DNA of 44,550 bases from a phage: sequence record PZ445417.1. One strand, 5' to 3'. The notes under the pieces are model-generated. The model saw only the letters and a program-made list of their open reading frames with translations. It did not search any database and was not told where the DNA came from. Both the position numbers and the translations under genes were made by a program. This document shows, piece by piece, positions 5,218 through 39,422 of the stretch (within the stretch, counting starts at the first letter, position 1; every line of letters starts with the position of its first letter).

Positions 5218-5239
5218 TTGTGTGTCCTCGTTGTTGGTG

Positions 5240-5279
5240 TGCAACCAATATATTGCAACCAATACGCAGATTGCAAGCG
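5240..5279 (-). promoter_or_regulatory. promoter-like region with tandem ATTGGTTGCA motifs
   Basis: On the minus strand: TTGCAA, 18 bp, TATATT, with two ATTGGTTGCA copies, immediately upstream of the RBS of 4453-5217. The leader ATATTGGTTGCACACCAACAA is almost identical to the one at 39388-39410. Confidence 0.45.
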
Positions 5280-6168: not shown

Positions 6169-7269
6169 ATGTCTTTAACAGTGTTCCAGCGTAAACTCGT
6201 TACCGCGGTTACGCAAATGATCCCCGACAACCTGAACGTTTTCAACGCCGCCGCCAATGGCGCTGTTGTTCTTGGTACGGGTGAAGTGCTGAAGGATGTT
6301 GTAGAGAAAATGTCCGTAGGCTTGATCGCCAACCTTGTTACCGACCGTAACGCCTACGCCCCGGTCGGCACTCCGGCAACCGCTAAAGTGCTGGCGCGTA
6401 TGCTGACCAACTCGGTTAACCTTTCCGCGAAAGTGGGTCCGGTGGCAATCACTAAGGCTATGATGGCTAAGATCGAAACCAACGTTAACAGCGTTGCGGC
6501 TGAGATTGCGGCGCAGGCCACTCAAGCGATTTTGTTGCACTACCTGAAAGCGGGTATCGGTGCGGGTAAAGCGGCGATCGAAAGCAACGCAGCGGCAAAA
6601 TACACCCAACCGGCGCGCGTTGACGGCGTTGGCGGTCGTACCTTCCCGACCCTGGCAGACTTCCCGCTGGCGGCTTCTAAGTTCGGCGATCAGGCGTCTT
6701 TGATTAAATCCTGGTTTATGGACGGCGTTACCTGGGCAAACTTTATTGCATACCAGGCGCTCCCGTCTGCCGAGCAGGTATTCGCAATTGGCGATCTCCA
6801 GGTAATGGGAGATGGCCTGGGCCGTCGCTTCATTATCTCCGATGCCGCTGCCGATGCTATGGGTGCTGGTAACATGCTGGGCCTGGTCCCTGGCGCGGTT
6901 GCAGTTACCACCAACGGCCTTGATATGCTGGCGCAGGAGAAAGGCGGTAACGAGAACATCGAGCGCTGGTGGCAGGGCGAGTTCGACTTCAACGTGGCTG
7001 TTAAAGGCTATCGTCTGAAGGCGTCCGCTCGTACCCCGATCGAAGGCGTCCGCTCGTTCAAACTGGACGATATTACCACTTCCGCTAACTGGGAACTGGA
7101 CCAGGGCCAGGTAGACAACGCACCGGCAACCGTTCAGGATGTTGGCGCTGTGGGTGATGGCGATACTAAAGGTCGTCGTAAGACCCAGGCTGCACAGGCA
7201 GTGCCTACCCGTCACATCAAGGAAACCGCTGGCGTACTGGTTACGCTGACTGCTACCACAGCGTCTTAA
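6169..7269 (+). CDS. major capsid protein
   Basis: 366-aa ORF, ATG with AAAGGA RBS, after the scaffold gene and followed by a strong terminator. Composition typical of major capsid proteins. Confidence 0.7.
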   Translation: MSLTVFQRKLVTAVTQMIPDNLNVFNAAANGAVVLGTGEVLKDVVEKMSVGLIANLVTDRNAYAPVGTPATAKVLARMLTNSVNLSAKVGPVAITKAMMAKIETNVNSVAAEIAAQATQAILLHYLKAGIGAGKAAIESNAAAKYTQPARVDGVGGRTFPTLADFPLAASKFGDQASLIKSWFMDGVTWANFIAYQALPSAEQVFAIGDLQVMGDGLGRRFIISDAAADAMGAGNMLGLVPGAVAVTTNGLDMLAQEKGGNENIERWWQGEFDFNVAVKGYRLKASARTPIEGVRSFKLDDITTSANWELDQGQVDNAPATVQDVGAVGDGDTKGRRKTQAAQAVPTRHIKETAGVLVTLTATTAS

Positions 7270-7287
7270 TCGACGCACATCCCAAAT

Positions 7288-7314
7288 GGGCGGGCTTATG
7301 CCCGCCTTTTTTTT
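7288..7314 (+). terminator. rho-independent terminator
   Basis: GGCGGGC-ttat-GCCCGCC hairpin followed by T8. Confidence 0.7.
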
Positions 7315-7329
7315 ATAGGAGTGAATATA

Positions 7330-7830
7330 ATGTATGGCGACCCGCAAACCTTTGTCGATTATGCCGCTGCGCGAGGCGTTGAAATTACGCTAGGCGATGC
7401 AACGCAACACCTCACCATCGTTAATGACTTCCTTAACGGCATCAACTGGATCGGCGAACCCGCAGACCCGACTGGCGTCGACGCATGGCCCCGCATCAAC
7501 TACCCATCGGACGGTAAGCCGGTGCGCGACACGCTTACTGAAGTTGTGGCGGTAGTGCCTGCCGGGCAAATCGTAGACTTTGCATCAATCCCCGTCGCCG
7601 TTGAGCAGGCCGTTTACCGGCTGGCGCTGTTGGTGGCGGACGAGATCGATATTTCTCCGGTCGGCGATGGTAAAGAGACTATCCGCGAAACGGTTGGCCC
7701 GATCACGATGGAATACGACCCGGCGTCGATTGGTAGCGGGGTATCGTTCCCGTGGTGGGATGGCTTGTTAGGGCACTGGGTTGATTCTGGCGGCAACGCC
7801 GTAGGCAATTTCGACGTATTCAGGGGGTAA
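7330..7830 (+). CDS. putative head-tail adaptor / head completion protein
   Basis: 166 aa from the ATG at 7330 (AGGAG RBS). Position between capsid and tail genes; function inferred from synteny only. Confidence 0.4.
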   Translation: MYGDPQTFVDYAAARGVEITLGDATQHLTIVNDFLNGINWIGEPADPTGVDAWPRINYPSDGKPVRDTLTEVVAVVPAGQIVDFASIPVAVEQAVYRLALLVADEIDISPVGDGKETIRETVGPITMEYDPASIGSGVSFPWWDGLLGHWVDSGGNAVGNFDVFRG

Positions 7831-10526: not shown

Positions 10527-10840
10527 TTGAGGCGGCGCGACGCTTTTATGGCCCGCCGCCACCCTCCGAAGATTTAGCCGCGAGTTTATGGGGTGCGGCC
10601 CCCGAAGATGTTTGTCCGCCTGTTGCGCTATGGCCCGACAACGCGAAGGTAGTCGCAGTCTTCACAGATTGCTCCACGCAATGGCGCACCGGATTTGGTG
10701 GCGCATACGGCATCGACTACGGCGTGTTGGAGTGGTTATTTAAGATGCACGGCATCGAAAACGAGCAGCGCGCGTTTAAAGATATTAAGCTAATGGAACG
10801 AATCGCGCTTGATGAAATGGCGCAGCAGAACCCCGCATAA
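10517..10840 (+). CDS. gpT-like extension of the tail chaperone, reached by -1 frameshift
   Basis: The -1 frame is open for 107 codons from the slippery site A_AAA_AAC (10517-10523) to the TAA at 10838-10840, with no in-frame ATG start; checked codon by codon. Confidence 0.55.
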   Translation, partial: KKLIEAARRFYGPPPPSEDLAASLWGAAPEDVCPPVALWPDNAKVVAVFTDCSTQWRTGFGGAYGIDYGVLEWLFKMHGIENEQRAFKDIKLMERIALDEMAQQNPA

Positions 10841-10842
10841 TG

Positions 10843-11157
10843 AAGCGGGGCAGATCGGGACGTCCCGTTTTGTCCCGCCTTTGCAAAACTGCATACCTAC
10901 TCACTTCCACTGCATAATCTAAAAGCGGGACAAGCGGGACGTCCCGATCTGCCCCGCCCTGTAAATGTGCATACCTATTCATATTTCATGCATAAACCAA
11001 ACGGGACAGAAAGCGGGACAAACATGGGGCGGGACAAAGCGGGACAGCACCCCGTCCCCGCCAGTGCTGCCGCGGGTTTTAGCCGATCGGGACAGGCGGG
11101 ACAAAGCCCAGTCTTTCAGACTAGACGGGGGTCAGTGGCCCCCCTCGTCTGAGACTG
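10843..11157. repeat. non-coding repeat element, copy 1 (inverted repeats, CGGGACA iterons, conserved long hairpin)
   Basis: Inverted arms GCGGGGCAGATCGGGACGTCCCG (10845-10867) and CGGGACGTCCCGATCTGCCCCGC (10935-10957); at least 8 CGGGACA copies; imperfect ~19-bp hairpin at 11109-11157. The distal ~160 bp is about 80% identical to 39047-39204. Confidence 0.7.
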
Positions 11158-11225
11158 CATAAGGTTTGTTTTAAAATCGCTGATACAATATCAATCGGCA
11201 ACTGCATAAAAAAGGGGACTGCATA

Positions 11226-13868
11226 ATGGCAGATCAGGCAGCAGGCATCACGCTAAAGGCGGATGTCGCACAAATCAGAACGGCAAATACTGTGCTGGAC
11301 TCCTTCGCACAGAAATCCGAGAACACAGAAAACAAGGTTAAGAAATTAAACGACACCCTCGGCAAATCCAAAAAGGTGACGAGTGACGCCGCGGGTGGAA
11401 TGGAGAAGCTGGCGACTGAATCGCAGCGTGCCGCCGACGGCATGACGAAACAAGAGCGACTTGCCAACCGGTTAGGCATGTCGACCAAAAACCTGGGCTT
11501 TGCCTCGCGTAACGCCGCATTCCAGTTACAGGATATCGCAGTTACGCTTGAGATGGGGATGCCGGTGCACCGCGTCATGCTTCAGCAGTTACCGCAGCTA
11601 ACTGGGGCGTTCGGTGGATTTGGTAACACGCTGCGTTATGTTGCGGGCTTCCTCGGTCCGGTAGGGATCGGCATTGCAGCACTAACGGCAACGTTAGGCG
11701 TAGGAGTGGCGGTTACGTCCCGTGCCGAAAACCAGGTCGCAGCGCTTAACAAGACGCTGGCGCTGTCAGGTAACATTTCCGGCCTCACTGCAAACCAGAT
11801 CCTGGTGCTATCCGAGAACGCCGAGCGCATGGGGGGGTCATTCAGTAAGACGCGTGACACAATCCAGGCACTGGCGGCGGCGGGGGTGAAAGCGGGCGCT
11901 GACTTCGGCGCGCTTGCGAAGGTTGTGAATGACTTCGCGAAGGCGTCTAATCAGCCGATCGCGGACGTGGTGGGGTCTATCGCTAAATTATCCAACGACC
12001 CGGTTGGCGGACTGCGCGCACTGGCGGACCAGTACCACGTCGTTACCGAGGCGCAGATCCAGCAGGTGCAATCGCTTGTAAATATGGGGCGTGAAACGGA
12101 CGCGGTGGCTATGGCTAACAAAACCGCCGCGGCGTCGTTCGCCAGCATGACCAACGATGTCAAGGCCAACATGGGTACGCTTGAGCGGTCGATGAACGTC
12201 GTCACATCGGCAGCTAAATCAATGTGGGATGCCATCCTGGATGTTGGGCGCGCGCAGTCCTCGAATGAGTCCGAGATGAAAGCGCGTGAATCCTTGCAGC
12301 GCATGACCACGGCGTACTATGCCGAGATGAAGGCGGTAAACGCTGCCGGTGGGGTGATGACCGAAGCGCAGAAAGCGCGTATTAACATGCTTTACAGCGA
12401 ACTGGTCGCCCAGGAAAAGGTAGTGGCGTCGCTCACCCTGCGCAACCGTGCCGAGCGAGACAGCGCCAGCGCCGCGGATGAAGCAGCAAAGGCGAACGAG
12501 GAGGCAAACCGCACCGCCCGCGACCGCGCCGCGTTTGAGAAGGAGTACGCGACCAACGCAAAGCGGCGATCCGACGAGATCGCCCGCCTCAATTTGCTGA
12601 ATAAGCGCGGTGTTATTAACGAGAAAGAACTAGCCGAGGCGGTGAAGCAGGTCAACGAACGTTACAAAGACCCCGCCCAGAAGAAGGCCGCCGCTGTTCG
12701 AGTCGATGCCGGGCTGAAAATGCTGGAAGTCGCGCGAAGCGAATTAGCCCAGCTTCGTGAGTCTGGAAAGCAGATCGAAGCCAACGCATCGACGCAGACC
12801 CGCACGCAACGCGCGCAAGCGGCCCTTAACAAGCTGGTGGCGGATCATGAACAGTTAATCGCGGCGAGCAAAGAAAGGGCACTGACGGCGGCAGAAAAGC
12901 AGCAAATGGCGGAGTTCGAGTCGGTTAAATCTGTACGCGAGCAGATCGTAGAAGAAGCCAAATTGCTGGACGCGAAAGAGAAGCAGATCAAGGCACACGC
13001 CCAGGTCGAGGCTTTCATCAAGAACCAGAACGCCGAGCTAAAAGCCACCGCGGCGGGCTATGCGCTTTCTACTCGCGAAGCGGCTAACCTGCGCGAAGAG
13101 TTGCAGCTAATTGACCGTCTTCAGCGTGCCGGTGCTAACGATACTGATATTGACAAGGCGGTGTCTAAGCTGCGTGAGGTTCAGGAAGCACAGACCGGTG
13201 CTAACGCCTCATTATGGGATGGATTCAGTCGCGGGCTTCGCGATAGTGTGGATGAAATGGGTAACGGATACACGCAGATGGCGTCACTCACAAAATTCAC
13301 GTTCGGCGCTATGCAGGACACGATGAACGAGTTTTTCGAGACTGGCAAGCTGAACGCAAAGGATATGGTTAAGTCCATCCTGAGCGAATTAATCAAGCTG
13401 GCTACCTCGCAGGCGTTCAAGTCCATCGTTAGCGCTTTCGGTGGCGACGGCGGCAAAAACGGATTGTTCGGCGCTATCTTCTCTGGCCTCACTAAGAATG
13501 CAGACGGCGGAGCGTACACCGGAGGCAATCTCGCGGCCTATTCGGGGCAAGTGGTAAGCCAGCCCACTTTTTTCAGTTATGGCGTCCAGGCGTTCGCTAA
13601 GGGCGCAGGATTGATGGGGGAGGCGGGACCCGAGGCCATCATGCCGCTTAAGCGCGGGCCAGACGGTAAACTAGGCGTCGCCGCTGCCGGTGGGGTCGGT
13701 GGGATGATTGTAACGACCAACGTTAACATGGGGACCGGTAAGACGGATACCAGTGTTAGCGGACCGGACCCGCGCACCGCGCAGGCGTTCGGAAAGCAAA
13801 TCACCGAGTCGGTCAAGGCCGAGATCGTGAAGGCGACGAAACCGGGTGGTGTACTTTACAAACGATGA
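11226..13868 (+). CDS. tail tape measure protein
   Basis: 880 aa, AAGGGGA RBS. Long Ala/Gln/Glu-rich helical protein with a Gly-rich C-terminal part, located between the chaperone and tail tip genes. Confidence 0.85.
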   Translation: MADQAAGITLKADVAQIRTANTVLDSFAQKSENTENKVKKLNDTLGKSKKVTSDAAGGMEKLATESQRAADGMTKQERLANRLGMSTKNLGFASRNAAFQLQDIAVTLEMGMPVHRVMLQQLPQLTGAFGGFGNTLRYVAGFLGPVGIGIAALTATLGVGVAVTSRAENQVAALNKTLALSGNISGLTANQILVLSENAERMGGSFSKTRDTIQALAAAGVKAGADFGALAKVVNDFAKASNQPIADVVGSIAKLSNDPVGGLRALADQYHVVTEAQIQQVQSLVNMGRETDAVAMANKTAAASFASMTNDVKANMGTLERSMNVVTSAAKSMWDAILDVGRAQSSNESEMKARESLQRMTTAYYAEMKAVNAAGGVMTEAQKARINMLYSELVAQEKVVASLTLRNRAERDSASAADEAAKANEEANRTARDRAAFEKEYATNAKRRSDEIARLNLLNKRGVINEKELAEAVKQVNERYKDPAQKKAAAVRVDAGLKMLEVARSELAQLRESGKQIEANASTQTRTQRAQAALNKLVADHEQLIAASKERALTAAEKQQMAEFESVKSVREQIVEEAKLLDAKEKQIKAHAQVEAFIKNQNAELKATAAGYALSTREAANLREELQLIDRLQRAGANDTDIDKAVSKLREVQEAQTGANASLWDGFSRGLRDSVDEMGNGYTQMASLTKFTFGAMQDTMNEFFETGKLNAKDMVKSILSELIKLATSQAFKSIVSAFGGDGGKNGLFGAIFSGLTKNADGGAYTGGNLAAYSGQVVSQPTFFSYGVQAFAKGAGLMGEAGPEAIMPLKRGPDGKLGVAAAGGVGGMIVTTNVNMGTGKTDTSVSGPDPRTAQAFGKQITESVKAEIVKATKPGGVLYKR

Positions 13869-26390: not shown

Positions 26391-26441
26391 AATATAATGC
26401 AACCAATATGATTATGCAACCAATATGATTATGCAACCAAT
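26391..26441 (-). promoter_or_regulatory. three tandem 17-bp repeats ATTGGTTGCATAATCAT with a promoter-like arrangement
   Basis: Three direct copies at 26398-26441. On the minus strand: TTGCAT (copy 2), 17 bp, TATATT. Confidence 0.5.
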
Positions 26442-32346: not shown

Positions 32347-33132
32347 TTAACGGCGGCGACGTTTACGTGGCGCTTCGTCTTCGTCGTCTTCGTCCTCATC
32401 TTCGTCATCACGCGACTTGCGACGTTTGCGAGGTTTTTCATCTTCCTCATCGTCGTCGTCATCGCGGCGCTTGGATTTCTTGGACTTGCGCGGCTTGTCA
32501 TCCTCGTCATCGTCATCACGACGTTTTGACTTCTTAGCCTTACGCGGGCTTTCATCTTCGTCATCGTCGCCCAGGTCTTCGTCGGAACATGAAGACCCGC
32601 CACCTCCGAAGGCTTCGCCGTCCTCACGGAATCGCAGACCCAGCAAGCCAGCACCGAGTCCCTTGCCGTTGGTATTGTTCCATGCCCAAATATCAAGGGA
32701 CACGTTGCAATAACAACCGGAGTAGATCTCCTGGCCTTCAATCTCGTCGCCGTCGATGGTCAGACCTTGTTCAGTCTGCTTCTCGCCGAGTGACGTTTGA
32801 ATGATTGGTTGTTTGAACGATTTGGCGTTGATATACAACATGCCTTCGAATTCTTCGGTTACTTCATCGCGCTCGTCGCCGTCGCGAACTGCACATTCCT
32901 TAGAATCCTGGGCGTAGTGGCGGTCCATCCACTTATCGGCATTCTTCTCGGATTTCAGCTTGTCGGTGAGCACTGCGCGTGCTGCCGCTTCCACTTTGTC
33001 CACCTGCGGATCTTCTTTATCCAGAAGAATCACGGCACGGTATGCCGGTTTTTGTCCATCCTGTTTAGGGGTATCACGTTCCCAAATTTTCAGGAAGCAT
33101 ACGCGCACATTTTTCAGGTTGACTTTAGCCAT
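32347..33132 (-). CDS. single-strand DNA-binding protein-like (T7 gp2.5-type) with charged tandem-repeat C-terminal tail
   Basis: 261 aa from the ATG at 33132 (GAGGA RBS). N-terminus MAKVNLKNVRVCF and an FGGGG motif before the tail, as in gp2.5-type SSBs. The last ~70 aa are alternating acidic and basic blocks, mirrored by ~60-bp DNA tandem repeats. Confidence 0.5.
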   Translation of the reverse strand: MAKVNLKNVRVCFLKIWERDTPKQDGQKPAYRAVILLDKEDPQVDKVEAAARAVLTDKLKSEKNADKWMDRHYAQDSKECAVRDGDERDEVTEEFEGMLYINAKSFKQPIIQTSLGEKQTEQGLTIDGDEIEGQEIYSGCYCNVSLDIWAWNNTNGKGLGAGLLGLRFREDGEAFGGGGSSCSDEDLGDDDEDESPRKAKKSKRRDDDDEDDKPRKSKKSKRRDDDDDEEDEKPRKRRKSRDDEDEDEDDEDEAPRKRRRR

Positions 33133-33222
33133 TTTCCAATTCCTCATTTTCACATGTATCGGGGTTATTGGAAGCCACCCCGTTCGGCTTGGTTGCTAAT
33201 TTACTTGGTTGCGCCTAAGCGG

Positions 33223-35369: not shown

Positions 35370-35879
35370 TTAATCTTCCAGTTCGAAATAGGTTTCGACG
35401 ATTTCTTTTAAATCTTTGTGGAAGTCTTCGACGTCGTCATCTTCCAGCTTGGCGATTGATTTGATTTCGAACGCGTCCAGCAGGTCGTCGAATTCGTCGT
35501 TCGCGTCGTCGTCGTCACCGCCGGCAATAATCGCGGCATACTGTTTGATTTCGTCGCGCATCTCTGCCAGCGGATCGGCATCTTTCTTACCTTTGCCTTT
35601 CGCCGGTGCTTTCTTAGCCTTAGCCGGTTTTTCGTCTTCGGCATCTTCGTCGTCATCTTCTACGACTTCTTTTTTGGCCTTACCTTTAGCCGGTGCTTTT
35701 TTAGTTTTCGCTGGTGCTTCGTCTTCAGCGTCGTCATCTTCTACGACTTCTTTTTTGGCCTTAGACGGCTTTTTATCTTCCTGCTTACCAACGGCAGCGC
35801 CAACGGTTTCATAATGTTTAGCGATGATTTCCAGTGCTACTACGCCGCGAGTGATCAGGTTTACGATTTGCTCAAACAT
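35370..35879 (-). CDS. acidic repeat protein (169 aa), first gene of the leftward early operon
   Basis: ATG at 35879 (GGAGA RBS). Internal ~22-aa tandem repeat KAKKEVVEDDDxEDExPAKxKKAPAKGK and a strongly acidic C-terminus, mirrored by a DNA tandem repeat around 35647-35763. Confidence 0.55.
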   Translation of the reverse strand: MFEQIVNLITRGVVALEIIAKHYETVGAAVGKQEDKKPSKAKKEVVEDDDAEDEAPAKTKKAPAKGKAKKEVVEDDDEDAEDEKPAKAKKAPAKGKGKKDADPLAEMRDEIKQYAAIIAGGDDDDANDEFDDLLDAFEIKSIAKLEDDDVEDFHKDLKEIVETYFELED

Positions 35880-36082
35880 GGTATATCTCCGATTGGTTAA
35901 GTTTAGGTGTCGACAGTTAACTTCGTCGGTGGCCTTAACATAGTGCCTGGTTGCGCGTTCTCCCTTTCGGGTAGTGGACCAGGTTATATAATCACGGTTG
36001 GGAATCCTGACACTTCGATCCGGCCCCTGCGTTGCCCCTCTCCAGTTTGCGTCCTGCATCCTGTCGACGGGGTGAATAATAG

Positions 36083-36282: not shown

Positions 36283-36612
36283 ATGAATATCGACGACGCA
36301 ATCGAAATGTTAACTAAGACTGTTTGCAGTGAGACAAGCCGGTCCTGGGCATATACCGATGCCGTGGGGGCGGTGTTATTCGAAATCGAACGTCTGCGCC
36401 GTGTCGAAAAAGAATTGCGCGCGAAGCTGGAATTACTCAACGGTACAGCAGCCAGCAAGCTGCAAAAGCACAATGAAGAAATGGAAGAATACAAAAAACA
36501 GGTTATCCGTTTGCGCGATGAGGGAAAGTCATGGGCGATGATTGCCGAGTTAACCGGAATTAATCAGAGCACAGTGCGCTCCTGGGTACGCAATAATAAA
36601 ACTTCTAAGTAA
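36283..36612 (+). CDS. HTH DNA-binding protein (putative regulator or replication accessory protein)
   Basis: 109 aa, GGAGA RBS. C-terminal helix-turn-helix KSWAMIAELTGINQSTVRSWV; coiled-coil middle part. Confidence 0.55.
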   Translation: MNIDDAIEMLTKTVCSETSRSWAYTDAVGAVLFEIERLRRVEKELRAKLELLNGTAASKLQKHNEEMEEYKKQVIRLRDEGKSWAMIAELTGINQSTVRSWVRNNKTSK

Positions 36613-36616
36613 GGCA

Positions 36617-38887
36617 ATGGCAATGAGCTTAATTAAATTCGCGGTAACAAGACCCGCTAAAAAAGGCGAAAAAGCCAGGGCGGAAAACTTCCAGATGACC
36701 ACCGACGAGTTTTTCGAATTTATCAACGATGCTAAAGAAATATCCTCGGTGCATATCAACAAGACGGAAGATAAAGCCGAGTATGCGCGCCGCAAGCGTA
36801 AGGCCGATGGCATTGTGGCTTATACCAGTGATGGGCTGCGCCGCAAGACCAGTGCGGTGGATCGCTCGATCCTGTTCTTCGATATTGACCGTACCGACAC
36901 CCGCACCCTGCGCCGCTGCCGTAAGGCTTTCATCGACGCAGGACTGGAACATGTATTTCACACCACAACCGGCGACCGCCACCCGCTGAAAGGAGGCACG
37001 CGTTGCGCTCGTTTCCTGGTGCTCACCGATAAGCCTGTACCTGCTGAAGACCTGGGCCGCGTCCAGTATGCACTATTACACCAACTGGGCCTGTCAGATG
37101 TGGACTTCGATGATTGTACGAAAGACACAAACCGCCTTATGTACCTGCCTCACCAGCAATCGGTTATTAAGTGTCACTACGGCAAACGTGCCCGCGTCCG
37201 TCGTCTGCTTCGCCTGGCTGATAAGCTGGGAGTGGAAAAAGAGGAAGTACGCCGCGAACTAACCCAGGGCGATGACGGCGTGGCTGACGGTATTCTGGAT
37301 TGGTGCTTCCAGGCGGGATTCGAACCGCTGTCGTCCGGGCGTGGCTATGAAGTGCCGTGCCCTAACGAACACCTGCACAGCGGCGAAGGGTCCACCGCTA
37401 TCATGGTTAAGGATGGAGAGATCCGTTTCAAGTGTATGCACACCGGCAACGAGTGTTGCTCGGAACTGAACAGACACCAGCACCTGGCGCTACGTCTTAT
37501 CGGGATACCGGACCACCTGAACGTCGAACCACACAACATGTCTCGTAAGCAAATCGCCGCCATCCTTCCGGGACTGGACGACGAGGAAGTCGAATCGTGC
37601 TATGAACATATCGTTGATGCGGTCGGTGACGGCGACGAGTACGGCGGATGTACGGACGCAGACCTGGACAACGAGCCGGTTGCACTGTTCAGCAAGCACG
37701 ACCCGATCATCGAGGGGTTGATTAACTTTAAATCGACCTGGTACATGGCTGGCGAGTCGAACATCGGTAAATCTTTCTACGTGCTGGGGCAGATGGGTGC
37801 GATTGCCGCGGGCATTCCGTTTGGCGGTGCGAAGGTCGTCCAGTCTCATTGCTTCTATTTCGACGCGGAAGGTGGCGAAGCCTCTAACCAGCGTAAGGAG
37901 GCATTGCAGATCAAATATGAGCACGACCTGGACAAGCTGCACATTATAGACCTGCAATCACGCGGCTGGGATATCACCAGCAAATCCGGCTTGCGTGAAG
38001 TTATCAGCTTCATCAACCGCACCGCTAACGGCGAACCGGTGGGCCTGGTGGCGTTCGACTCACTCAACCAGACTGTTGCGCTGCGGTCCGCCGATGCTAA
38101 ACCGTTCGACGAGAACAACGCCAGCGATATGGGCGAAGTGGTCAAGGCGCTGAAGGCCATCGCAGAAAATACAGGCGGCAGTGCGGGCGTCATCCACCAC
38201 CCGGCGAAGGGTGCAAACGGCAGTAGATCCCCCCGCGGGTCCGGCGCGCTGCATGGTGCTGTCGATTCCGCGTTCTTCCTGGAGCAACCGGACGACAATC
38301 AGCCGGGCCAATTGAACCTGTATCACGAAAAAGCACGTAACGGCATCAAGCAAGCGCCGCGTGGCTTCGTCCTGCTCAAGTGCAAGGTTAAGGTGGATCT
38401 CCGCAAGTCCGAGGCGTTCGAATCGCACCAGTCCACCAGCACCGGGCCGGACTTCGGCGATGTGGTTGCCGGTTGGGACGTCAAGCCAATTGCCTCCACG
38501 CCACGCGACGAGACTCTTTACCTCGTACCGGTCGCCCTGGCGCCGTTCGCAATCGAACAGGCAAAGGCAGCGGGCAAAGCAGCAGTTAAGGAAGAGAACA
38601 CCGCCGGACCGCGCAACGAAAAAGAGAAAGTGCTTTATGCGGCACTGGAAAAACTGATGGAAGATAACCCGGACCATACCGGATTCAGTAAATCGGCGAT
38701 TGTCCGCCAGGCGGGATTGGCAAAAGGTGGCACATCGACGAAGGCAATCGACGATATGGTCGAGCGCGGCGTACTCGGTTTTTATACAGATCCGCACACT
38801 GGGGCCATCTATGGGTCGTCGAATATCGTCATTAAAACAAGTATACCCATCACGCTTTCGGCGACAGATGACGACCTGAAAGATTAA
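36617..38887 (+). CDS. DNA primase/helicase (prim-pol-like N-terminal domain plus RecA-like ATPase)
   Basis: 756 aa. N-terminal acidic motif LFFDIDR and HVFHTTTG (archaeo-eukaryotic primase-like), a Cys/His cluster, and Walker A GESNIGKS with Walker B-like VAFDSLNQ. Confidence 0.7.
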   Translation: MAMSLIKFAVTRPAKKGEKARAENFQMTTDEFFEFINDAKEISSVHINKTEDKAEYARRKRKADGIVAYTSDGLRRKTSAVDRSILFFDIDRTDTRTLRRCRKAFIDAGLEHVFHTTTGDRHPLKGGTRCARFLVLTDKPVPAEDLGRVQYALLHQLGLSDVDFDDCTKDTNRLMYLPHQQSVIKCHYGKRARVRRLLRLADKLGVEKEEVRRELTQGDDGVADGILDWCFQAGFEPLSSGRGYEVPCPNEHLHSGEGSTAIMVKDGEIRFKCMHTGNECCSELNRHQHLALRLIGIPDHLNVEPHNMSRKQIAAILPGLDDEEVESCYEHIVDAVGDGDEYGGCTDADLDNEPVALFSKHDPIIEGLINFKSTWYMAGESNIGKSFYVLGQMGAIAAGIPFGGAKVVQSHCFYFDAEGGEASNQRKEALQIKYEHDLDKLHIIDLQSRGWDITSKSGLREVISFINRTANGEPVGLVAFDSLNQTVALRSADAKPFDENNASDMGEVVKALKAIAENTGGSAGVIHHPAKGANGSRSPRGSGALHGAVDSAFFLEQPDDNQPGQLNLYHEKARNGIKQAPRGFVLLKCKVKVDLRKSEAFESHQSTSTGPDFGDVVAGWDVKPIASTPRDETLYLVPVALAPFAIEQAKAAGKAAVKEENTAGPRNEKEKVLYAALEKLMEDNPDHTGFSKSAIVRQAGLAKGGTSTKAIDDMVERGVLGFYTDPHTGAIYGSSNIVIKTSIPITLSATDDDLKD

Positions 38888-38962
38888 ATTTTGCGCGCAT
38901 TGGTTGCCGATATGGGAATTCCCATATCGCTAAAAGATTAAATTTTGCGCGCATTGGTTGCC
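38881..38962. repeat. two perfect 28-bp direct repeats flanking a perfect 22-bp palindrome
   Basis: AGATTAAATTTTGCGCGCATTGGTTGCC at 38881-38908 and 38935-38962. Palindrome CGATATGGGAATTCCCATATCG at 38908-38929. Each repeat contains ATTGGTTGCC. Confidence 0.8.
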
Positions 38963-39046
38963 ATTTTGGGCGTTTTTAACTGGTCGTATTGGTTGCCGTG
39001 TAGTGTAAATATAATGAATAGTTATGCAATAAAACTGCATAAAGTA

Positions 39047-39204
39047 AGCGGGACAAAAAGCGGGACAAACAAGGGGCGGGACAAAGCGGGACAGCACCCC
39101 TGTCCCGCCCCGGATGACGCGGCCTGGAGAGGAGCGGGACAGCGGGACAGCACCCCAGTCTTTCAGACTAGACGGGGGTCAACGGCCCCCCTCGTCTGAG
39201 ACTG
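39047..39204. repeat. non-coding repeat element, copy 2 (CGGGACA iterons plus conserved hairpin)
   Basis: Six CGGGACA copies, a GCGGGACAG-cacccc-TGTCCCGCC dyad, and a hairpin at 39156-39204 that differs from copy 1 only in its loop. Confidence 0.7.
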
Positions 39205-39360
39205 AATAAAATCCGGGAATTGCAAAAATACACGGCAGCATGACGCGAAGTGCGGTCGCGGATGAACTAGGCAACCAATGCTAGTTGCATTATGCTGAGT
39301 GAAAAATGCAGTTTGCAGTCACAGCAGATAGCGATCAACTTTTTCATGCGCGTGATTAAT

Positions 39361-39401
39361 ATTGGTTGCATCCGCCCTGGCACCCTGCTATATTGGTTGC
39401 A
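39361..39401 (+). promoter_or_regulatory. sigma70-like promoter with two ATTGGTTGCA copies
   Basis: ATTGGTTGCAT (-35 TTGCAT), 17 bp, TATATT, then a leader GGTTGCACACCAACAAGAGGAC nearly identical to the one upstream of 4453-5217. Confidence 0.5.
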
Positions 39402-39422
39402 CACCAACAAGAGGACTGAACA

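Follow-up and report, generated by a model that had tools for sequence, protein, structure and literature searches.

Two copies of a non-coding module, built of short direct repeats (iterons) and a long compound hairpin, were found in the window, the whole 44,550-nt stretch of phage DNA in record PZ445417.1. The module is probably the replication origin of the phage. The window was identified as a complete or near-complete genome of the genus Dhillonvirus, from an HK578/SO-1-like coliphage. Copy A lies in the tail operon. Copy B lies past the gene for a primase-helicase, the proposed initiator, whose C-terminal domain is predicted to be a winged helix and is the candidate reader of the iterons. 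As in iteron-type origins, the short direct repeats form a cluster that is specific to the replicon and, in copy B, lies next to the proposed initiator gene. Among the four roles listed for the element in the original prediction, which was made from the letters of the window, a replication origin was the best supported.

The two copies (A, 10989-11162; B, 39036-39209) were 82-84% identical by MAFFT alignment and repeat search, in line with the predicted identity of about 80% and distance of about 28 kb. The iteron CGGGACA occurred 16 times in the genome against 6.3 expected occurrences, a number that 0 of 100 shuffled sequences reached. The two loci held 14 of these 16 sites, with six to seven counted per copy, where at least six had been predicted. 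On the plus strand, iterons started at 10926, 11002, 11014, 11030, 11040, 11088 and 11097 in locus A and at 39049, 39061, 39077, 39087, 39135 and 39143 in locus B. Inverted copies were located at 10871-10877 (locus A) and 39101-39107 (locus B).

Region A (10842-11225, plus strand) comprised the entire non-coding gap of 384 nt between the DUF1799 tail assembly chaperone gene, with its stop at 10841, and the tape measure gene, with its ATG at 11226; this is the placement originally described. It contained the full module and a partial upstream duplicate. The upstream boxes of the module, GTGCATACCTATTCATATTTCATGCATAA (10967-10995, plus strand), were a degenerate counterpart of TGAATAGTTATGCA-N7-TGCATAA, and the exact TGAATAGTTATGCA box was found in copy A of some relatives (L064). 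Iteron cluster 1 (11002-11062, plus strand) consisted of four direct CGGGACA repeats and a degenerate inverted copy, GTCCCCGCC. It was followed by the central spacer AGTGCTGCCGCGGGTTTTAGCCGAT (11063-11087, plus strand), partly conserved with L037 and Enterobacter phage phiEap-2, and by iteron cluster 2 (11088-11103, plus strand) with two direct repeats. The compound hairpin (11109-11158) was composed of an outer helix CAGTC/GACTG, a middle helix and an apical G-run/C-run helix. Three CTGCATAA boxes (11155, 11202 and 11219, spanning 11155-11226 on the plus strand) lay downstream, the last overlapping the tape measure start codon. The extra pair of inverted arms that had been reported around a core was present as 26-nt arms (10845-10870 and 10932-10957, 96% complementary) around GGGACGTCCC. 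Each arm contained the GGGACGTCCC palindrome and iteron-like CGGGAC(A/G) sites, and two TGCATA boxes lay between the arms. The stretch from 10845 to 10957 has the appearance of an incomplete tandem copy of the module's boxes and iterons.

Region B (38888-39422, plus strand) was the non-coding sequence 3' of the primase-helicase gene, where the module was flanked by ATTGGTTGC motifs. Copy B began about 130 nt past the primase-helicase stop (38887), again as described beforehand. The boxes TGAATAGTTATGCA (39015-39028) and TGCATAA (39036-39042) on the plus strand kept their sequence even where the iterons of a lineage differed. Four direct CGGGACA repeats and the exact inverted copy at 39101-39107 formed iteron cluster 1 (39049-39109, plus strand) with the dyad GCGGGACAGcaccccTGTCCCGCC, and two direct repeats formed cluster 2 (39135-39149, plus strand). 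An internal dyad had been claimed for each copy; it was exact in copy B (GCGGGACAG-cacccc-TGTCCCGCC) but degenerate and one base short in copy A (GCGGGACAGCACCCCGTCCCCGCC). The stems of the copy B hairpin (39156-39204) were identical to those of copy A and only two loop positions differed (CAGTG in copy A, CAACG in copy B), which bears out the identical stems and differing loop noted originally. A CACGGCAGCA box (39231-39240, plus strand) was found 3' of the hairpin in all lineages.

The record of Sodalis phage SO-1 (GQ502199) already marks the equivalent loci as repeat_region features, 'region A' and 'region B', with direct, inverted and palindromic repeats, mutual similarity and a function termed 'possible', and gives no analysis, distribution or protein partner. 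No paper characterising these regions of SO-1 or their equivalents was found. Small open reading frames (ORFs) over copy A (10965-11162 on the plus strand and 10785-10982 on the minus strand) were not supported as genes, since frameshifting 1-nt indels occurred inside them among Dhillonvirus relatives. Many GenBank records have 'hypothetical protein' ORFs annotated over modules, as in Dhillonvirus region A, in Salmonella phage Shemara (L005, 38192-38711) and in Hafnia phage TS33 (L167, 1614-1895). Several of these are probably spurious.

Both loci matched 157 phage records. Matches of 80-95% identity that spanned 80% or more of the query were present in 144 records for region A and 138 for region B. 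A comparison with related genomes had been proposed as a check, and it showed both loci conserved in about 140-157 sequenced relatives. Outside the genus, loci were searched by anchoring on the primase-helicase gene. Relatives whose primase was only 37-49% identical carried a module of the same architecture directly past the primase stop. The module occupied the same post-primase position in at least 12 lineages: Dhillonvirus, L173, L175, L177, the Cornellvirus Shemara, phiEap-2, Pantoea phage AH01, TS33, L026/L037, L027, L031, L176/L179, L180 and Edwardsiella phage eiAU. Many further carriers were metagenomic phages, and a module of this kind past the primase-helicase gene is a feature of many enterobacterial siphoviruses. 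In Shemara, the module was annotated as three tiny hypothetical ORFs. L178 showed GGTGCCA iterons and an A/T-rich spacer on a contig that ends early, so that the hairpin was not visible, and L180 showed only GGGGATC dyads and an A/T-rich spacer.

The order of parts was the same in most lineages. The 5' part comprised one or two boxes of the TGAATAGTTATGCA/TGCATAA type, three to four direct iterons, an inverted iteron or dyad and a spacer of about 25 nt. The 3' part comprised two to three iterons, the long compound hairpin, a TTATTCA/TGCATAA box and CACGGCA(G/A)CA. In several lineages the module was followed by a sequence that resembles a sigma-70 promoter by eye. The flanking boxes were constant in sequence while the iteron changed by lineage. 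The lineage-specific iterons were CGGGACA, GTGTGGCA, GTGTGCCA, GGTGCCA, CGGACAA, CCGACA, GGGATAA, GGGGATG, GGGGGAGA, CGCCCCG, TTGCGAGT and GGGGATC. In Shemara, all five genomic GGGGGAGA sites were inside the module, where 0.65 were expected. Many lineages outside Dhillonvirus had an A/T-rich TGATTTATAAGGA(A)AAA element in the spacer position between the iteron clusters.

The boxes of the TGAATAGTTATGCA/TGCATAA type flanked the core (10889-11226 and 39015-39042) and were also seen in L005, L026, L027, L031, L053 and L168. Two TGAATA boxes about 21 nt apart were present in most lineages. The TGAATAGTTATGCA/TGCATAA boxes matched neither the DnaA nor the IHF consensus. A 14-mer scan with TGAATAGTTATGCA returned mostly chance matches, which were filtered for downstream repeats. 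A more distant variant in L069 (IMGVR_UViG_3300037153_000557, about 7150-7400) combined TGGACAT iterons and the TGAATAGTTATGCA box with a simple hairpin, TTTGGACACACCC...GGGTGTCCAAA. This variant preceded, and did not follow, a gene whose start encodes a Cys-rich motif resembling a Zn finger by eye.

Within Dhillonvirus, iterons and stems were invariant while the loop, the sequence between iterons and some lengths (1-nt indels) varied, and for this reason the module is regarded as a non-coding protein-binding and structural element and not as small ORFs. The proposal of selection on structure held at both scales: stems were invariant within the genus with a varying loop, and across lineages the stem sequence shifted while the fold was kept. 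Folded as single-stranded DNA, the hairpins of 11 lineages had z-scores of -2.6 to -4.7, and 0-4 of 200 shuffles folded as well. The copy A hairpin (53 nt) as DNA had z = -3.2, with 0 of 200 shuffles folding as well. The mean pairwise identity of 12 hairpins was only 60%, and their self-complementarity was 67-82%. All lineage hairpins were long three-helix hairpins with a G-run in the 5' arm and a C-run in the 3' arm. An alternative form of three hairpins is possible in some lineages, in which the outer arms are themselves X-loop-X' units. Stems of the Dhillon clade barely varied, and formal covariation was minimal with one compensatory pair. The Dhillon-like L038 showed a compensatory change from AGACG/CGTCT to GGACG/CGTCC. 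Covariation analysis across lineages with MAFFT and RNAalifold was set aside because MAFFT misaligns the divergent hairpins, and folds per lineage with shuffles were used instead.

Folding as RNA gave z = -3.8 and -2.2 for the 76-nt stretches around the two hairpins. The iteron cluster as RNA folded no better than shuffles (z = -0.3 and -1.4). The complementary strand folded equally well or better in 12 of 13 cases, and an inverted iteron was often found in the apical loop (TGTCGG in L026/L037, TGTCCG in phiEap-2, TCTCCC in TS33, TGTCCCC in L019). A terminator scan found none at either hairpin; their tails, GCATAAGG and AATAAAAT, had no U-tract. Rfam 15 gave no hit at gathering level. Because the opposite strand folds, the iterons are unfolded, inverted iterons are apical and both a U-tract and an Rfam match are absent, an element acting at the DNA level is favoured over one acting at the RNA level. 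An Archaea_SRP match on the minus strand of 10843-11063 scored 29.6 bits, below the gathering score of 96.5, and is considered spurious, caused by long G+C-rich inverted repeats. The idea of a CsrA sponge or small RNA, suggested by GGA motifs, was also dropped: there was no promoter or terminator and no Rfam match, the iterons were unfolded and the iterons of other lineages were without GGA.

The primase-helicase (36617-38887, plus strand, 756 aa) has a predicted N-terminal AEP prim-pol fold (match to 6zp9, E = 2e-5), a Zn motif CPNH...C.H.HC and a RepA-like AAA_25 helicase, for which Pfam gave AAA_25 only and the PDB a weak match to RSF1010 RepA (1g8y). The predicted winged-helix domain, the proposed iteron reader, spans residues of about 668-739 (38618-38833, plus strand). 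Its AlphaFold2 model showed the topology H-S-H-H-S-wing-S with a predicted local distance difference test score (pLDDT) of 81-91 over the core. Foldseek searches with the domain returned mostly winged-helix proteins, chiefly DNA binders (MarR family, linker histone, IclR, ScpB, DnaD-N). The domain was the most variable part of the protein, with 32-38% identity among lineages compared with 55-77% elsewhere. With only the C-terminal 157 aa as query, a protein search retrieved a single fragment, whereas the full-length query worked. The protein ends in an acidic tail, DDDLKD (38867-38884, plus strand), and relatives end in a similar D/E-L-x-D/N motif.

A link between the C-terminal domain and the iterons is suggested by two independent natural mosaic pairs, L037 with phiEap-2 and L026 with AH01. 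Members of a pair shared about 90% DNA identity (97-100% protein identity) up to primase codon 660-672 or so. Over the C-terminal domain, iterons and hairpin, DNA identity fell to 35-60%, and only the universal boxes stood out as identical islands; it returned to 80-100% directly 3' of the hairpin, where homology resumes at the CACGGCAGCA box. Since the divergence spans exactly domain, iterons and hairpin, these three form the exchanged unit. The L037 and phiEap-2 primases were 97-100% identical to residue 650-660 or thereabouts and 42-57% identical over the last 100 residues or so, and their iterons were CCGACA and CGGACAA, respectively. The iteron type differed between L026 and AH01 as well. 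The C-terminal domain of L037 was closest to that of L026, which has the same iteron and hairpin. The start of the putative recognition helix tracked the iteron in four pairings: DGGRRRPA with CCGACA; GGGN[SK]RRR, with a shared insertion of two residues, with CGGACAA; AGG[NG]RRPA with GGGAT; and KGG[DG]RY with GGGGGAGA / GGGGATGA, that is GGGG(G/A)(A/T)GA.

The second copy, in the tail operon, had a narrower distribution. Shemara and phiEap-2 had the primase-adjacent copy only, and their tail chaperone and tape measure genes abut. Dhillonvirus and Eiauvirus, whose tape measure proteins are only 39% identical, both had a large non-coding island between these genes. In eiAU, CGCCCCG iterons were common to the island and the post-primase region, as was a block of 52 nt (88% identity) that was absent from the rest of the genome. 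Copies A and B were matched within a genome though the iteron differed between the genera (CGGGACA in both Dhillonvirus copies). Because Dhillonvirus and eiAU each have a matched pair, the comparison of sequences indicates that the two-site arrangement is old or recurrent and that the sites stay matched while diverging between genera. Within Dhillonvirus, the pre-hairpin variants GGCGGGACAAAGCCC and GCGGGACAGCACCCC each occurred at both A and B in different genomes, which shows that sequence was exchanged between the sites. A locus search anchored on the tape measure gene found close relatives only, and eiAU was reached via a paper and tblastn. Besides a strong terminator after the chaperone gene, the eiAU island (L172, 42365-42890, minus strand) contained gp54, an ORF on the reverse strand, and TGCAACCAAC motifs arrayed ahead of the iterons.

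Taken as an origin, the module would work as follows. The primase-helicase would read the CGGGACA iterons via its own C-terminal winged helix and then oligomerise over the two iteron clusters. The DNA would be opened and the adjacent palindrome could extrude as a hairpin of one strand; either strand folds, the bottom one slightly better. The helicase would be loaded and priming would take place at the extruded hairpin. Copy B, beside the initiator gene, would be the ancestral primary origin. Copy A would bind the same protein, either as a further origin or to assist or stall forks while occupied by the initiator, comparable to oriR of SPP1 and crr of P4. Escape mutants of the Dhillonvirus HK578 against the OLD protein of P2 map to the helicase-primase or its promoter, and OLD was reported to be triggered by single-stranded DNA hairpins at origins (bioRxiv 10.64898/2026.07.10.737580). 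These data are compatible with the two copies being origins, and they do not map the origin.

Several observations weigh against this assignment. The spacers of the Dhillonvirus modules were G+C-rich and showed no obvious A/T-rich unwinding element. The consensus sequences for DnaA (TTWTNCACA) and IHF (WATCAANNNNTTR) were absent from both modules of the window, and GC skew followed gene orientation and marked neither site. Homologous primases of Jerseyvirus, Kagunavirus and L022/L023 (IMG/VR) had no module past the gene; a terminator and a convergent helix-turn-helix (HTH) gene took its place. The correlation of helix and iteron was weak in the Dhillon-like clade, and co-transfer of domain and module could be partly due to their physical adjacency between two conserved recombination anchors. 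Fold-level support for the C-terminal winged helix was modest, given a model of moderate confidence: the best Foldseek hit had E = 9e-3, with probabilities up to 0.99, and none reached E <= 1e-3. In every lineage examined, the module was on the strand of the primase gene (copy A, on that of the tail genes), which leaves a weak case for a role at the RNA level. Involvement of DnaA or IHF had been considered for the TTATGCA boxes, which resemble TTWTNCACA, and was discarded for want of a consensus site in either module of the window. L125 had perfect DnaA boxes, which are probably an unrelated chance match. A plasmid search showed no similarity to plasmid origins.

Other explanations share part of this evidence. 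The winged helix of the primase-helicase could bind the array for autoregulation, titration, handcuffing or as a fork barrier, while replication starts elsewhere by a transcription-primed or recombination-dependent route, as in T7 and T4. The coupling of winged helix and iterons applies equally to such a non-origin array, which would also suit the modules of Dhillonvirus without an A/T-rich unwinding element and a replisome that looks T7-like (PolA, gp2.5-like protein binding single-stranded DNA (SSB), acidic helicase tail), and oriR of SPP1 is thought to be a barrier and not an active origin (PMC6316719). However, the post-initiator position, the iterons in two clusters and the conservation of the hairpin agree with known origins (P4, pRN1, RSF1010 type), and the window showed no further repeat-rich candidate for an origin, which makes an array without origin function unlikely. 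We see a slim chance that the module acts as RNA, be it a terminator, attenuator, processing site, put-like antiterminator or small RNA with repeats bound by an RNA-binding factor. The constant strand, the stability of the hairpin as RNA with variable loop and conserved stems, and the sigma-70-like sequence 3' of the module fit this explanation. The missing U-tract, the negative terminator scan at both sites, the lack of an Rfam family, the folding of the opposite strand and the unfolded iteron cluster do not, and direct and inverted repeats that change with a domain of DNA-binding type point to recognition of double-stranded DNA. The cis-acting RNA named in the original prediction is accordingly a weak candidate.

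That the small HTH protein (36283-36612), whose gene lies just upstream of that for the primase, uses the iterons as its operators, as was also proposed, is very improbable. An HTH gene precedes the primase gene in all lineages, but L037 and phiEap-2 have different iterons and yet HTH genes with about 95% DNA identity, and the HTH family varies by genus (HTH_23/sigma70_r4 in Dhillon-like, XRE/HTH_3 in Guernseyvirinae-like phages) despite a homologous module. The ATTGGTTGC motif is a better candidate for the operator of a regulator. A packaging (pac) or recombination site for terminase or recombinase, the remaining role put forward, can be given hardly any weight. Regions of the pac and cosB type typically have repeat arrays and bent or structured DNA, and copy A lies in the late region. 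Against this, PhageTerm predicted headful packaging for Opt-212, the one Dhillonvirus analysed, and five Dhillonvirus genomes were assembled as circles (PMC9022532), the module tracks the primase gene in all lineages wherever the terminase gene lies, and Guernseyvirinae have the primase-adjacent copy only. Just as little can be said for a recent or selfish duplication without function, similar to a miniature inverted-repeat transposable element (MITE). Copy A does interrupt a normally contiguous operon and segments of A and B have been exchanged. Both copies are nevertheless present genus-wide with invariant iterons and stems and variable spacers and loops, and eiAU has its own matched pair with different sequences; the similarity was thus not that of a local duplication lacking conservation, an outcome that the original prediction had allowed for.

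A second intergenic motif, ATTGGTTGC, occurred at 16 sites where 0.56 were expected, mostly between long ORFs by eye and often in pairs or triplets (5241-5263, 21362, 24737, 26399-26441, 29375, 36083, 38899-38996, 39271, 39361-39400 and 39926). It probably serves a phage regulator as operator or promoter element, and that regulator could be the HTH protein encoded ahead of the primase. Counterparts in similar places were TGTTGGCTG (phiEap-2, Shemara, TS33, L031), TGCAACCAAC (eiAU), TTGGCCGC (L179) and TGTTGGCAGC (L180). A perfect 22-nt inverted repeat, TATATTGGTTGCACACCAACAA, contains ATTGGTTGC and was found at 5231-5252 and 39389-39410, 34 kb apart, with one copy upstream of the head-gene region and the other downstream of region B. 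A 41-nt direct repeat, CTGAAAGATTAAATTTTGCGCGCATTGGTTGCC (38876-38916 and 38930-38970, 90% identical), spans the primase stop codon, and each of its copies ends in the ATTGGTTGC motif.

Acidic tails were found in all primase homologues examined (DDDLKD, EDDDLEN, DEDLEN and similar) and resemble the C-terminal tail of T7 gp4. In T7 this tail contacts the polymerase. Together with PolA and a gp2.5-like SSB, both also encoded in the genome, the acidic tail suggests a T7-like replisome. Two early minus-strand genes (32347-33153 and 35370-36059) contained related internal repeats (32354-32580 and 35424-35763, respectively) that encode alternating acidic (D/E) and basic (K/R/A/G) stretches. One of the two is the gp2.5-like SSB homologue, judged by position relative to eiAU.

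Dhillonviruses and Guernseyvirinae belong to the coliphages and Salmonella phages that are isolated most frequently, and collections for therapy and biocontrol make use of them. No defined replication origin was found in the literature for either group. If the module is an origin, these phages would have a testable origin and a testable protein partner, the winged helix of the initiator itself, and the natural specificity swaps could be used to study how iteron recognition evolves. They would also provide a Gram-negative counterpart to the SPP1 oriL/oriR question of what purpose a second origin in late genes has, and the reported sensitivity of HK578 to OLD would likely be due to the DNA hairpin of the module. 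More tentatively, winged helix, iterons and hairpin might form a portable cassette for origin specificity that is exchanged by recombination among phage groups, with the matched tail-operon site of Dhillonvirus and Eiauvirus as a programmed initiator-bound barrier or second origin that times the switch to concatemers for headful packaging. At least two groups would take part in the exchange, namely Guernseyvirinae (a subfamily) and Dhillonvirus (a genus), and Eiauvirus might be another. Such exchange would define replication-specificity groups and possibly alter the origin hairpins sensed by OLD or Lamassu.

The layout of the two sites is closest to that of SPP1, a headful siphovirus of about 44 kb with two similarly organised repeat-containing sites and one initiator, gp38 (PMC6316719). 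Its oriL is found at the gene for the initiator, and its oriR occupies a non-coding stretch that breaks up the late morphogenesis genes (PMC6316719); the latter was proposed to stall forks and trigger the theta-to-sigma switch and concatemer synthesis (PMC3485210). Copies A and B of Dhillonvirus and eiAU match this layout of initiator gene and late-gene island in anatomy only. SPP1 differs in having separate proteins as initiator, helicase loader and DnaB-type helicase and in using the host primase. The SPP1 origins contain an A/T-rich unwinding element but lack a long compound hairpin, and there is no sequence or protein homology to the phage described here.

The satellite phage P4 has its iterons at two separate cis sites, ori and crr. 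The P4 alpha protein is a single polypeptide with a primase, a helicase and, at the C-terminus, a winged helix for binding short iterons (PMC4234260, PMC2777425), and the C-terminal winged helix predicted by AlphaFold2 for the present primase-helicase resembles this arrangement. However, P4 alpha has a Toprim primase and a superfamily 3 (SF3) helicase in place of the AEP prim-pol and RepA-like AAA_25 helicase, and P4 ori has no conserved compound hairpin. ORF904 of pRN1 comprises an AEP prim-pol, a helicase and a C-terminal winged helix, with a small DNA-binding gene upstream (PMC4234260). An essential element of the pRN1 origin is a stem-loop downstream of the rep gene that is conserved in structure and variable in sequence (PMC4234260, PMC2777425), and its authors noted similar arrangements in some bacteriophages (PMC4234260). 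The phage module is similar in combining an AEP prim-pol and a predicted winged helix in one protein with a stem-loop conserved in structure and not in sequence, whereas pRN1, an archaeal plasmid of Sulfolobus, has an SF3 helicase, no iterons and a stem-loop of about 100 nt. In oriV of RSF1010, iterons lie beside palindromes that act as single-strand initiation hairpins (ssiA/ssiB) for a dedicated primase. The present phage resembles this IncQ plasmid in its RepA-family helicase, with the weak match to 1g8y, but RSF1010 uses three separate proteins (RepC, RepA, RepB') and two ssi hairpins on opposite strands and has no sequence similarity to it. By analogy with P4 and pRN1, an iteron origin read by the initiator's own domain would be of a known type. 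It would differ in its class of helicase, in uniting iterons with a hairpin, in a specificity cassette that can be swapped and in a second copy that, similar to SPP1, two genera have in their tail operon.

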